Numbered from the stretch's first letter, positions 27,754 through 31,567 are shown. The stretch is 64,000 nucleotides of DNA from a virus (IMGVR_UViG_3300031414_000007:64001-128000), one strand, 5' to 3'. A program made the numbers and translations. The notes: generated from the letters alone by a model not told the origin.

Positions 27754-28176
27754 TTACTGTGCCCTCATTGCAAACGTAATTGATTGTTTGTCTTCGAGCT
27801 TAGGACAACGCCATGTGATTACACACACGTAGGTCTGCTCGTATTGATCGCTCATGGTGCAGGCTGTCTTGACGCTGGTTACGTCCTGCGTGAGACCGTT
27901 GTATGGGTCTTCTAGGGCAAGACGCATGTACGTTGCAATCCAGTCAGCCGTTGTTTGATCGAACGGCTCAAACAGATACTGATATACATCGGCACCGAAG
28001 TTCTCACGCCATTTGCGAGACTTCTTACGCGTACCGATTACCATCAGTATCTTCTGGACGATGCTGTCCATGTTCTGCACGTTATCGCGCGGTTCAAGTT
28101 GAATCCACGCATTAATATCACAATAGATGCGCTCGCTAATCGGCACATCTATCAGACGAACTCCGATTCCAGCCAT
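27754..28176 (-). CDS. Baseplate wedge subunit (T4 gp25/gpW-like)
   Basis: ILMVIGTRKKSRKWRENFGADVYQYLFEP matches the gp25 T..G.R....FG..L...LFEP pattern. Confidence 0.85.
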   Translation of the reverse strand: MAGIGVRLIDVPISERIYCDINAWIQLEPRDNVQNMDSIVQKILMVIGTRKKSRKWRENFGADVYQYLFEPFDQTTADWIATYMRLALEDPYNGLTQDVTSVKTACTMSDQYEQTYVCVITWRCPKLEDKQSITFAMRAQ

Positions 28177-28466
28177 TAGCCAAATCTCACATTAGAACTA
28201 CCACTCGAAGCTGTGTCGCCGCAACTGTTAGCGTCACCAGCACGTTGCGCAGGCTTACCGTTGACACGCACACTAGAACTTGAAGTAGCTTTCCCGACAT
28301 GAGGAGGCTTCTTTGGTTTCCAGTGAGGACGATAACTATCGCCTTGACGAACACTCCCTTTTCCATTCACAAGCACGTTAGAAGATGCCTGAGCAGGGAC
28401 AACAGGAAAATAACCATTGTGTCCAGTAGACAGATCTGTGCCTAAACGAATAGCTTTCTGACCCAT
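28176..28466 (-). CDS. PAAR-domain spike tip protein
   Basis: IRLGTDLSTGH, VLVNGKGSVRQGD..H, VRVNGKPAQRAGD...CG...GSSNV. Confidence 0.9.
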   Translation of the reverse strand: MGQKAIRLGTDLSTGHNGYFPVVPAQASSNVLVNGKGSVRQGDSYRPHWKPKKPPHVGKATSSSSVRVNGKPAQRAGDANSCGDTASSGSSNVRFG

Positions 28467-28489
28467 GTTAATTCTCCTCTGTTAGGCAC

Positions 28490-28498
28490 AAATTAGCT
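28490..28498 (-). promoter_or_regulatory. Candidate late promoter motif AGCTAATTT
   Basis: Between the terminator at 28516 and the PAAR start (24 nt upstream). Confidence 0.65.
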
Positions 28499-28509
28499 TG
28501 TTATGCAGT

Positions 28510-29770
28510 AGAAACGAAAACGGGCAACCCGAAGGCCGCCCGTTTTCTTTGCTTGGATTTGTGTCGCTTAACTCCCTCACACCCGAAGCGAGTGCTCGGT
28601 AGCCGAAGCCACTAAGCCGGAGTTAATGGCCGAGAGTGAAGCCGCACGGCGCGGCAACAGCATGTGACTCTCGGGACCAGATAGCAAGCGACCAAGCATC
28701 GCAATTGCTATCAACGACACGAAGAACAAAATCATGTTTGCTCCTGTGTCTCTACTGTAAGGTAAAACATTTGCAAATGTCGATCAAGTTACTTCAAGTT
28801 GCCCTTCGCCCAACTTCACTAGGGTTTCAACTCTCTTTCTCTCGTTACCGCCTGGGTTGCGGAGACCGCGCACAAGAACAACGCTTCAACGATACGTGGG
28901 CAGGAAGACACGTACCGTATTCACATCGCTCAAGCGAAGGAGGTTACCCATCGGTGATCTGCGGTGGTTAATACACTCTTTAACAATCGCTCTTGTTGTG
29001 CATTAGATCGTGGTAGGAACGCGATTGACCGCTAACAAGTCCTATACGATATTTCACTACCCGAGAATGGGTATCAGCTATGGCAGCACGTCAACAGCAG
29101 CGGGGCAGCGGACACACTCCATTAAGCATTGTTAAGGGCAATGCTCAACAGGCTGTGAACAGCTTTGACCAAATGCAGAGTCGCTCGTCGCCCGACTTCA
29201 CTTGAGTATCTCGTCTGCACTCTTTTACTCCCTGAATACCGTACAAGGAAGACGGCACCCATGAGGGTCTGCGGATGTTTATCACATTAAGACTCTAGCC
29301 AACTTAATCCCGTACGCAGTGTGTTGAGTCGTCCGCTGGATGACACACTACATACCCCCTCACGTTCGTGCATAAGTGGGATATAGCTGGTGGAAGGTTG
29401 TCATGAAGATTGCATCGCCTGGAGGCCTGCCGTTCTTCCCAATGCACACACGGTGAAAGGCATATGTGCATCAGGCAGCGTAGCTGCAAACTGCTATCCC
29501 GATAAGAGGGGCCACAACGTTGAGAGTACGTTCCGCCTGTCTTACGCGCCTAGAGGCAACTGCCGTGCCATGTCTGAAAAGAATGAAAAACGCTGGGCCT
29601 TGTGAGCGTCAGCAGCAGAGCAGCAGTCTATCGCGTGGGTGCTGGGGTTAATCCTCACGATTACAGAGCATCACACTCTAACCAGCTGGAGGCTTGCCTA
29701 CTGTGGAACGCAGCGACAAGTTTACAGTCAAACAACGTCCGCTAAGTACGCCATCTGACTGGGACAAGTT
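28510..29770 (-). ncRNA. Candidate large structured non-coding RNA (~1.25 kb), family unassigned
   Basis: The only long ORF-free gap in the window. Seven 9-13 bp helices carry 14 G-U pairs that all fit the minus strand; two internal cUUCGg hairpins; multiway junction near the 3' end; ends in a terminator. Confidence 0.7.
28516..28547 (-). terminator. Rho-independent terminator with cUUCGg loop
   Basis: Minus strand GAAAACGGGCGGCC-TTCG-GGTTGCCCGTTTTC then GTTTC; two G-U pairs fix the strand. Confidence 0.85.
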
Positions 29771-29803
29771 GATATTACTATCTGCAATTTTTATTTACAG
29801 ATT

Positions 29804-31567
29804 TTAGAACGCCTTACGCTCAATATTTGAATAAAGAGTATCGTAAGGTTCTGAGTACAGTTCAGGTCCGCGTTGTGCGCGAATCGTCACGTAGCCTGTG
29901 TGACGGTTGAACGCTGTGATTTCGACAGTCGGCTGTTTAGGCTTGATAGTCGCATAAATCGGAGCATTCAACGTTGGCTCGTCTGTCTGAATCTTATTTA
30001 CAGATTGCAGTGCAGCGCCAGAGATAGCAGGCAGATTAAAACGCAGTTCAGCACGTTTCTGGCCGAATGCCGCGCGAATCATACCGTTCTCCAACTCTAC
30101 ACCGTTCTGCTTGAGATATGCAGCGATGCGACGTCCGATACCAGTAAGCTGATCGCGAGTGCGCGGGTCAAACGTGCCTTCGAAGCTGATTGCTTCTGCT
30201 GGCTGACGTACAGACAAGTGCAGGCCCGTGTTGAAATAGCCTTCGGTAAGCAGACGCAGGATTTCTTTCACGACCTCTTTGGTGTTCGTCTTGATAGCAG
30301 CGATACGCAGCTCAGGAACGTCCACTTTAATCGGGTCACGAAGCTCGGTCTGGTTGTCCATATAGCCGAGTGAGATATGCTTCGCATTGGCATACGTGTG
30401 TTGCAGCACACCAGTCGCGCGAATCAATACAGAGCCACCTTTTGCGAGGTCATAAAGTTCATCGCTGGTGGTTGTGCTGAACAGGTAATAGTCCGTAGGT
30501 ACGGCCATGCGATTAACAGCTTCAATCGCTTTGGTCTGAGCTTCTTTGACAGTTGAGCCAAAGACTACGCGACTACGATTCGGCTGGGCAGCAGATACAG
30601 GGAAAAACGCACCATAGACAACGCTAACGTTTTTCTTAATCGGACGCTCAGACTGAATCTTCTTACCGCCAGGCAGAGACGGTAGCTTAACGCCCACCAG
30701 CTTACCTTTGACGATAGCTTTGTTCTCTTTTACCGGCTTGAGGCTGTCAATGAGTTTCGCCAGATCAGCACCGCTAAGAATCTTCTCCAGCGGAACAGCG
30801 AGGTTCTGCGGCAGATAGTGTTTCTTGCGGAACATATAGATAACGGTGTCTTTCTTGATCTGCACTGGCGTAGCCATGTTGCGACCAACAACACCGACCG
30901 GCTGGAACGTGTTTGCTTTGTCATCACCGATAGAGCCGAACTGCTTAGTGAACTCAGTCTGGCCGATGATGTTAGCAGCACGTAAATGGCCACGAATGAT
31001 GAACACGATTTTCGGGTCATCTTTCATGCGCAACTCGTAGCGGTCACGGTTCAGATAAACCATGCTGTACTTGTCGCCTTTCTCCAGCTCCAGATCGTAC
31101 TCGTCGTTAGCGTCATCAACAACGACTTTCTTACCTACGTAGGTACCGTAAGTGCGCGGGCCAGCAGACTCAGAAGCAATCTGCAATGCTTTGCCACTGT
31201 TAGACAGAGAGGCAGCGAAGTCCATAACAGCGGGCATCAGGTCTAAAGACGATGCTACAGCGTATGGCTTGCGCTTCTCACCAAGATGCAAATGAACAGC
31301 GCTACTGCTGGACATGAATACGGTTGTGCCTACATCTTCGTGTGTACCAGCGAAGTGCATACCGCTAATACGTTCGATGATGTTTGCGTTGAGCGATTGG
31401 AAGTTTACTTCGCTGCCTGCGGTGAAGTCATAAATTTCACCGTTACGCCACGCATAGGCAACGTTGTTTGAGCTTAGACCCACGAACGCATCACCCAACT
31501 GACGCACGGTCAATGGCATGATGCTCAGGTCACGAATAATCGAGGACTGCTTTTGAATGAGGTTCAT
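29804..31567 (-). CDS. Hypothetical protein, probable internal head protein (587 aa)
   Basis: Long ORF; several S-x-S motifs in the N-terminal 140 aa; carries the shared YxG...GD...Y.L...DDP domain. Confidence 0.7.
   Translation of the reverse strand: MNLIQKQSSIIRDLSIMPLTVRQLGDAFVGLSSNNVAYAWRNGEIYDFTAGSEVNFQSLNANIIERISGMHFAGTHEDVGTTVFMSSSSAVHLHLGEKRKPYAVASSLDLMPAVMDFAASLSNSGKALQIASESAGPRTYGTYVGKKVVVDDANDEYDLELEKGDKYSMVYLNRDRYELRMKDDPKIVFIIRGHLRAANIIGQTEFTKQFGSIGDDKANTFQPVGVVGRNMATPVQIKKDTVIYMFRKKHYLPQNLAVPLEKILSGADLAKLIDSLKPVKENKAIVKGKLVGVKLPSLPGGKKIQSERPIKKNVSVVYGAFFPVSAAQPNRSRVVFGSTVKEAQTKAIEAVNRMAVPTDYYLFSTTTSDELYDLAKGGSVLIRATGVLQHTYANAKHISLGYMDNQTELRDPIKVDVPELRIAAIKTNTKEVVKEILRLLTEGYFNTGLHLSVRQPAEAISFEGTFDPRTRDQLTGIGRRIAAYLKQNGVELENGMIRAAFGQKRAELRFNLPAISGAALQSVNKIQTDEPTLNAPIYATIKPKQPTVEITAFNRHTGYVTIRAQRGPELYSEPYDTLYSNIERKAF

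Follow-up and report, generated by a model that had tools for sequence, protein, structure and literature searches.

Evidence for a large, modular, pseudoknotted non-coding RNA gene in the tail-baseplate block of Erwinia jumbo phages and their relatives

The 64,000-nucleotide stretch of viral DNA analysed here (IMGVR_UViG_3300031414_000007:64001-128000; the window, part of a 210-kb genome) contains a single long interruption in its minus-strand gene tiling, at 28467-29803. Very probably this gap is an independent gene whose product is a large, structured non-coding RNA encoded on the minus strand; the first ~1.0 kb is non-coding and the last ~0.2 kb is a separate unit with an open reading frame (ORF) of 52 amino acids (aa). 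The gap is 99.3% identical to that of Erwinia phage pEa_SNUABM_30 (Alexandravirus, 260 kb). Upstream it is bounded by a gene for a 587-aa protein (29804-31567; Pfam KMPT-N only; PHROG 32352, no function assigned) and downstream by the gene for a PAAR spike-tip protein (28176-28466), beyond which lie gp25-like and gp6-like baseplate genes. All local genes are on the minus strand, as are the features described below, and the RNA sits in the tail-baseplate gene block of an Erwinia jumbo phage. The ORFs flanking the gap are intact, each with its own start and stop codon, and the largest ORFs within it are one of 111 aa on the plus strand and others of 52-71 aa. An earlier reading made from the sequence alone (the sequence-only reading) had called this the only long ORF-free gap in 64 kb, a description borne out by the gene tiling and by the substitution phases.

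Comparative analysis used an alignment of the gap plus flanking sequence from 13 non-redundant phages, whose pairwise identities are 53-99%. Between 29770 and 28785 the substitution rates by phase are 0.30/0.30/0.29, flat in all blocks, and those of the flanking genes are 0.09/0.40/0.14, 0.10/0.09/0.46 and 0.10/0.06/0.37, a strong 3-base periodicity. Our protein-coding test of 29770-28785 accordingly found this periodicity absent, and an open frame is kept only at 28735-28577. Since this conserved ORF occupies the 3' 160 nucleotides (nt), the non-coding part of the gap amounts to ~1.0 kb; the earlier estimate of ~1.25 kb of non-coding sequence holds for the first ~1.0 kb and fails for the 3' 160 nt, where a frame of 47-53 codons is conserved. 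Mean identity is 0.69 in the gap, compared with 0.76-0.83 for whole coding sequence and ∼0.55-0.63 for third codon positions of the neighbouring genes, and there is no strand switch or skew shift at the gap. In GenBank records of relatives the region is blank or bears short 'hypothetical protein' genes on either strand (for example L003:1887-2036 and 2585-2743, L004:1468-1611, L009:1428-1992 and L011:1989-2150); with the exception of the 52-aa ORF, these genes lack conservation and were probably called in error. We also noted an extra ORF of ~40 codons between the terminator described below and the PAAR gene in Dickeya phage AD1, vB_Ea_2910A, SNUABM_33 and SNUABM_3 (L005:2830-2956, L006/L007:2826-2954 and L008:2823-2945), which is absent from this window.

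The main support for an RNA comes from covariation. Because folding the whole alignment with alifold gave noise, it was folded as six blocks, each compared with 100 column-shuffled alignments in which the phylogenetic pattern of columns was preserved. The consensus folds have z-scores of -7.1, -6.3, -7.5, -4.8, -8.7 and -14.1, with 19, 10, 25, 8, 29 and 19 well-kept compensated pairs, respectively, against shuffle means of 2.3-6.7. Every block exceeded its shuffle maximum, and in total 110 compensated pairs were observed where ~22 were expected from the column shuffles. Covariation among homologs, which the sequence-only reading had proposed as a check, is thus found in all six blocks. The reverse complement folds with fewer pairs, fewer compensations and higher energy in each of the six. 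For a comparison that favours neither strand, we selected helices with at least two Watson-Crick-to-Watson-Crick compensations, a rule that yields 29 helices and 189 pairs; their alignment cells contain 313 G-U and 38 A-C combinations, indicating an RNA read from the minus strand, as the earlier reading had argued from the asymmetry of wobble pairs in a single genome.

Most of the individual helices that had been drawn by hand in that reading are recovered in the 13-sequence alignment. Helix 29471-29461/29452-29442 is paired in 129 of 132 cells and has 5 compensated pairs, helix 29351-29343/29324-29316 is paired in 109 of 117 cells with 7 of its 9 pairs compensated, and helix 29148-29139/29131-29122 in 123 of 128 cells with compensation at 7 of 10 pairs; in helix 29260-29252/29242-29234, 8 of 9 pairs are compensated. 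Two others, 29760-29748/29738-29726 and 28918-28909/28898-28889, also covary but lie where the MAFFT alignment is poor, so that only 100/159 and 81/104 cells, respectively, are paired. The last, 28745-28737/28730-28722, is conserved but nearly invariant, and shows a single compensated pair.

We are confident that the RNA is built of tandem paralogous modules, each comprising a loop-to-downstream pseudoknot (GCGGN with N'CCGC) and a hairpin with an invariant loop, which we call the X hairpin. The 5' domain (29435-29770; z-scores of -7.1 and -6.3; 19 and 10 compensated pairs, where shuffles average 2.9 and 2.3) begins with hairpins at 29760-29726 (loop UAGCGGAC at 29744-29737) and 29720-29693, continues with nested long-range helices (29636-29614 with 29569-29544) and ends in a long hairpin at 29475-29438 with the conserved loop GCCUUUCACC. 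This domain bears a GCGG loop hairpin as well as the long hairpin, the latter being paralogous to the hairpin at 29151-29119 of the following module (profile self-search, matches in 9 phages, E ~1e-3).

Module 2 (29105-29356; z -7.5) has 35 of its 47 predicted pairs compensated. It opens with a hairpin at 29355-29312, of 10 base pairs (bp), nearly all compensated, and a 20-nt loop, in which the element GCGGACGACUC at 29336-29326 pairs with 29295-29269. In this pseudoknot GCGGA and GACUC of the loop pair with UCCGC and GAGUC located ~40-60 nt downstream, where a conserved 15-nt bulge, UUAAUGUGAUAAACA, separates GAGUC from UCCGC. The GACUC/GAGUC helix becomes GAUUC/GAAUC in Y3, SNUABM_14 and L031, and the fifth pair, adjoining GCGG/CCGC, is A-U, G-C, U-A or U-G depending on module and phage, with one exception in ~25 instances. 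There follow a variable hairpin (29261-29233), the X hairpin (29234-29161), a small hairpin (29164-29151), the long hairpin (29151-29119) with loop GCCCUUAAC, and the element GGAGUGUGUCC at 29120-29110. Module 3 (28786-29104; z -8.7; 29 compensated pairs, shuffle mean 6.7) has the same arrangement of loop, pseudoknot and X hairpin in different sequences: a hairpin at 29044-29014 whose loop includes AGCGGUCAAUCGC, the pseudoknot partner at 28990-28959 (GCGAUUG, a bulge, then ACCGC), hairpins at 28931-28876 and the X hairpin at 28851-28779.

The X hairpin combines a freely covarying closing stem, an inner 3-bp stem (one C-G pair invariant, one changing from C-G to U-A and one from C-G to U-G) and the invariant loop ..AGUGAWGUYGGGCGA... 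Over 21 instances 87.5% of cells are paired, compared with 64% in shuffles, and the covariation score is 0.66, compared with 0.27 in shuffles (none of 500 reached 0.66) and 0.11-0.19 when the partners were slid. A profile of the module 2 X hairpin recovers that of module 3 in 12 of 13 phages, with E-values down to 1.5e-8. The covariance model built from the X hairpin, R1, has two matches in the window, at 29161-29234 (E 7.5e-14) and 28779-28851 (E 3.7e-15), and the same two in the whole 210-kb genome, so that it matches this RNA only.

With equal confidence we place the transcription unit at ~29786 to 28516, ~1.27 kb in length and served by its own copy of a phage promoter motif. The first 33 nt past the stop codon of the 587-aa gene (29771-29803) form an invariant block, identical in 13 of 15 aligned phages, that opens with AATCTGTAAATA at 29803-29792. 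This sequence is a copy of a motif, CTGTAAAT, that occurs 30 times in the 210-kb genome, where ~6 copies are expected; all are co-directional with the local genes and ~18 of the 30 sit 7-63 nt ahead of a start codon. In the form (A)ATCTGTAAATA it is seen on the minus strand of the window at, for example, 59869-59861, 35165-35158 and 29800-29792. The motif resembles the T4 late promoter TATAAATA, and by analogy with T4 late promoters the RNA would start near 29786. In Yoloswag and SNUABM_5 an intrinsic terminator lies between the 587-aa gene and the promoter motif, indicating that there the RNA is its own transcription unit. At the other end, the strong terminator predicted earlier was confirmed as an intrinsic terminator at 28547-28516 with a 14-bp stem, a UUCG loop and a U tract; its conservation extends to the Dickeya JA phages and the uncultured phage (UViG) L083.

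RNA sequencing data are suggestive only of expression from the gap. Six libraries contain parts of the stretch; these runs were picked for containing it, and their contigs are low-depth, strandless and without ends. In two of them, an insect metatranscriptome and a marine oligo-dT library, just three contigs in all map to the 20 kb around the locus, every one inside the gap and at least 99% identical to it (28901-29057, 29192-29357 and 29010-29221). A relative at ~92% identity is present in two more libraries; its contigs map to the gap as well as to neighbouring genes, and those of greatest length and depth fall on the gap.

The gap is kept in place and in size in 45 phage records, comprising Alexandravirus, Sasquatchvirus Y3 and the SNUABM_14 group, and shorter or longer versions occur in Yoloswag, SNUABM_5, Dickeya JA11 and JA29, a Yersinia phage and two uncultured phages. 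The RNA invariably comes straight after a homologue of the 587-aa gene, even as identity of the protein falls to 41%. R1 recovers copies on which it was not trained, in L025, Y3, SNUABM_14, the Yersinia phage and L083. The number of X copies per RNA is one in JA11, two in Alexandravirus, Y3, SNUABM_14, Yoloswag, SNUABM_5, JA29, L025 and L191, and three in L083. The gene that follows the RNA differs: the small membrane-peptide ORF occupies this place in the window, whereas Yoloswag and SNUABM_5 have a gp112-like gene and the JA phages and L083 one resembling JA11_103. In the present genome the JA11_103 homologue lies away from the RNA and outside the window (G000:C1:25811-25984); we observed that it adjoins a 368-nt stretch without a called ORF and a copy of the promoter motif (26317).

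No member was detected outside this phage clade when IMG/VR, JGI metagenomes and 185,579 bacterial and archaeal species genomes were scanned. Scans of IMG/VR with AGTGNNNAACATCCGCAG and AATCTGTAAATANNAATT returned mostly chance matches, which after filtering with nhmmer and tblastn left the same clade together with L025, L031 and L083. With the X motif of the Yoloswag type, the 185,579 prokaryotic genomes gave one chance match (a Hellea metagenome-assembled genome, no R1 match), and the metagenomes gave one further relative phage (L191) and one weak match (L190). The latter, at L190:1609-1679 on a 5-kb soil metagenome contig (R1 21.6 bits, E 2e-4), has no 587-aa or PAAR gene nearby and is probably due to chance. 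Neither R1 nor the GCGG..AACNNCCGCAG motif has a match in RaK2 or 121Q.

At the 3' end of the locus, 28745-28516 forms a conserved unit of its own, with the highest stability in the locus. It holds the 52-aa ORF (28577-28735), which has a Shine-Dalgarno sequence AGGAGC at 28745-28740, encodes one N-terminal membrane helix (MILFFVSLIAIAMLG...) and is without a match in Pfam or PHROG. All 13 aligned phages, together with Yoloswag (gp109) and SNUABM_5, keep this frame open over 47-53 codons; over its first 18 codons change is lowest at codon position 2 (0.23/0.10/0.22) and the membrane helix is conserved. Overlapping the ORF is a structured domain (28556-28745), the strongest of the six blocks (alignment z -14.1, single-sequence z -8.2). 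Its elements are a hairpin over the ribosome site (28745-28722), a closing helix (28720-28715 with 28566-28561) for which inspection reveals compensation from G-C to U-A in two lineages, a compensated hairpin (28674-28630), and a three-way junction (28622-28572) with two UUCG-type loops that is recognisable in Yoloswag with compensating changes. This layout recalls the tightly folded hok-type messenger RNAs of small toxic or lysis membrane peptides. The small ORF of Yoloswag and of L083 has a promoter-motif copy to itself, and a distance of 0.5-0.9 kb separates it from the RNA.

Searches among known RNA families were negative. A scan of the whole window with Rfam cmscan at gathering score gave no matches, and 28300-29950 at E≤10 gave three chance-level matches to unrelated small RNAs only. 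Rfam 15 thus yielded no match to GOLLD, ROOL, OLE, raiA, HEARO, pRNA, introns, RNase P, 6S or transfer-messenger RNA (tmRNA), and ARAGORN and Rfam found no tRNA or tmRNA, all of which agrees with the sequence-only reading, where no tRNA, tmRNA, RNase P, 6S or intron signature had been seen and a new class had been proposed. Our literature searches found no description of this RNA. Conservation, covariation, strand asymmetry, lack of coding capacity, a promoter motif, a terminator and the absence of an Rfam match together support a new, clade-restricted family of large modular pseudoknotted RNA. The large folded minus-strand RNA first proposed is therefore upheld, but its modular repeats, its pseudoknots and the conserved small 3' ORF had been overlooked.

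The closest likenesses are to GOLLD (RF01998) and ROOL (RF03087), which are also large (0.6-0.8 kb), intricately folded with multiple pseudoknots and borne by phages or prophages, and which likewise have their own transcription signals and a function that is not known. Unlike them, the present RNA is a variable-number chain of paralogous modules with no sequence or structure match to either, and it lies in the tail-baseplate block of one clade (Erwinia, Dickeya and Yersinia jumbo phages), whereas GOLLD and ROOL adjoin tRNA genes. The sequence-only reading had pointed to phi29 pRNA (RF00044), a phage non-coding RNA made late for virion assembly. That RNA is 120-174 nt long, is encoded beside the packaging genes and assembles into a ring through loop-loop pairs, whereas ours has no RF00044 match and its neighbours are PAAR, gp25-like and gp6-like genes, not a packaging ATPase or connector. 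Sponge RNAs of the CsrB/RsmB type, in which one RNA repeats a loop motif to titrate or organise a protein, provide our working model; they differ in using many short GGA hairpins, whereas the present RNA has 2-3 modules, each large and knotted, carries another loop and is matched by no Rfam family.

The modules are elaborate units that fold independently of one another. Invariant unpaired nucleotides carried on covarying stems, together with a module number that varies, point to a trans-acting RNA whose modules bind the same partner. We tentatively propose that the RNA may act in trans as a stable multivalent platform, either a scaffold or a sponge. Each module would present the same invariant loops to one partner, most plausibly a protein, and the number of modules, from one to three between lineages, would set the valency. 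The 587-aa protein encoded immediately upstream would be the first candidate for this partner. It has a KMPT-N domain at residues 141-201 only and a long, low-confidence, lysine-rich middle region (184-312), and searches with it gave no PDB sequence match, no Atlas lead and no Foldseek match. For the explanation as a whole, identity of the RNA and mechanism together, we put our confidence a little below even.

Several observations weigh against this reading. Taken singly, the sequence folds with unexceptional energy across most of the gap (300-nt windows, z +0.3 to -2.3), and folding no better than shuffled controls is a result that the sequence-only reading had listed as counting against an RNA; 28500-28799 alone is exceptional (z -8.2 on the minus strand and -4.0 on the plus). 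The support is from covariation rather than stability, and an ordinary single-sequence energy is not decisive for complex RNAs. For a discrete transcript the RNA libraries offer low-depth contigs from preselected runs, which show neither its strand nor its ends. There is no recognisable RNA-binding fold in the 587-aa protein by Foldseek or in its AlphaFold model, which is poor (predicted local distance difference test, pLDDT, 57), and the adjacency of its gene may merely mirror the rigid gene order of these phages. Finally, the RNA of distant relatives continues without a terminator into the ribosome site of the ORF behind it, an arrangement that also fits a leader.

Such a leader would be a very long 5' untranslated region governing translation or stability of the ORF behind it (in this genome the membrane peptide, perhaps with the PAAR spike) and responding, for instance, to a ligand or to how far assembly has advanced. 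In its favour, no strong terminator separates the modules from the following ORF, either here or in Yoloswag, JA11 and L083, and the hairpin that masks the ribosome site of the small ORF could be replaced by an alternative long-range helix that exposes it. We nevertheless consider a leader quite improbable. The RNA is kept while the downstream gene differs in three lineage groups, and this change of gene, set against the constant upstream neighbour and promoter, argues for a stand-alone RNA; the small ORF is detached from the RNA in Yoloswag and L083 and has its own promoter motif there, no known riboswitch family matches (Rfam, E≤10), and ~1 kb in 2-3 repeated modules far exceeds the needs of known leaders. 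Catalysis, present or past, as in a ribozyme or the relic of a self-splicing intron, could account for a complex pseudoknotted core with invariant unpaired nucleotides. Its GCGG/AAC..CCGCAG pairing recalls the P and Q elements of group I introns, a likeness supported by no model. This origin is very improbable given that Rfam models of group I (RF00028, P3-P9 core) and group II introns, GIR1 and small ribozymes return nothing at E≤10, that no interrupted gene is found at the flanks and that the position is fixed, hence not mobile. The RNA contigs have no clean excision joints (weak evidence, at low depth); the two joints per RNA run that we did find correspond to replaced segments of divergent relatives. 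As for a DNA-level element (a replication origin, packaging site or protein-binding array) or a decayed, functionless gene, non-coding sequence with many inverted repeats might suggest either, and yet both are scarcely credible: G-U exceeds A-C 8 to 1, favouring one strand, an asymmetry that contradicts a DNA-level element, the stems are kept by compensation despite sequence drift, and identity in the gap is above that of third codon positions with no switch of strand or shift of skew.

Two further readings take the modular build as their starting point. Being large, phage-borne and rich in pseudoknots, with invariant loops beside covarying stems, the RNA could oligomerise with itself into a closed multi-subunit particle as do ROOL, GOLLD and OLE, its loops then being RNA contacts and not protein sites. 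Other large phage-associated RNAs are reported to form such oligomeric particles by cryo-electron microscopy (PMC12286853), and the X loop GUUGGG could, by inspection only, pair with the loop CUUAAC at 29136-29131. We regard an RNA-only assembly as rather unlikely because Rfam reveals no homology to ROOL, GOLLD or OLE, because inspection of possible loop-loop tertiary contacts found none with consistent covariation, and because variable modules per chain are unlike the fixed protomers of ROOL and GOLLD. A 2026 bioRxiv preprint (10.64898/2026.09.22.753630) describes phage UG27 systems, in which a reverse transcriptase is accompanied by two ORFs, one small and one big, and by an array of pseudoknotted units of ~150 nt from which complementary DNA (cDNA) is templated. 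Their arrays resemble the present RNA in being tandem, structurally conserved and sequence-diverse pseudoknotted phage units that are gained and lost between relatives, and in both cases a variable-number array lies between a large and a small ORF. These parallels are superficial: UG27 units measure 135-167 nt, with a central hairpin and a pseudoknot, while the pseudoknotted units here are ~300 nt and the small ORF encodes a membrane peptide. Moreover, neither this genome nor any of five complete relatives encodes a reverse transcriptase (PF00078; control genomes were positive), so that a cDNA-template array is largely refuted and hardly tenable.

Returning to the trans-acting modular RNA, it may represent a new functional class. 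The modules and the 587-aa protein could form a ribonucleoprotein that builds or arms the baseplate of these 'hairy' jumbo phages and is possibly a component of the virion; alternatively, each module could be a yet-undescribed catalytic or ligand-binding fold. We consider such a class distinctly unlikely.

To our knowledge very few large, intricately folded RNAs exist beyond the ribosome, RNase P and introns, and the phage-borne GOLLD and ROOL proved to have unprecedented architectures. That phages carry large RNAs is known from these two; the modular repeat build, the pseudoknots and the variable number of modules are described here as new. Recognising the RNA gene would improve GenBank annotation of the region. 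This RNA of ~1 kb has been retained in seven or more genus-level lineages of jumbo phages, which are in culture and infect tractable plant pathogens. With isolates and hosts at hand, expression, partners, knockout effects and three-dimensional structure are all open to direct testing, and the natural one-, two- and three-module variants are nearly a ready-made dissection experiment.

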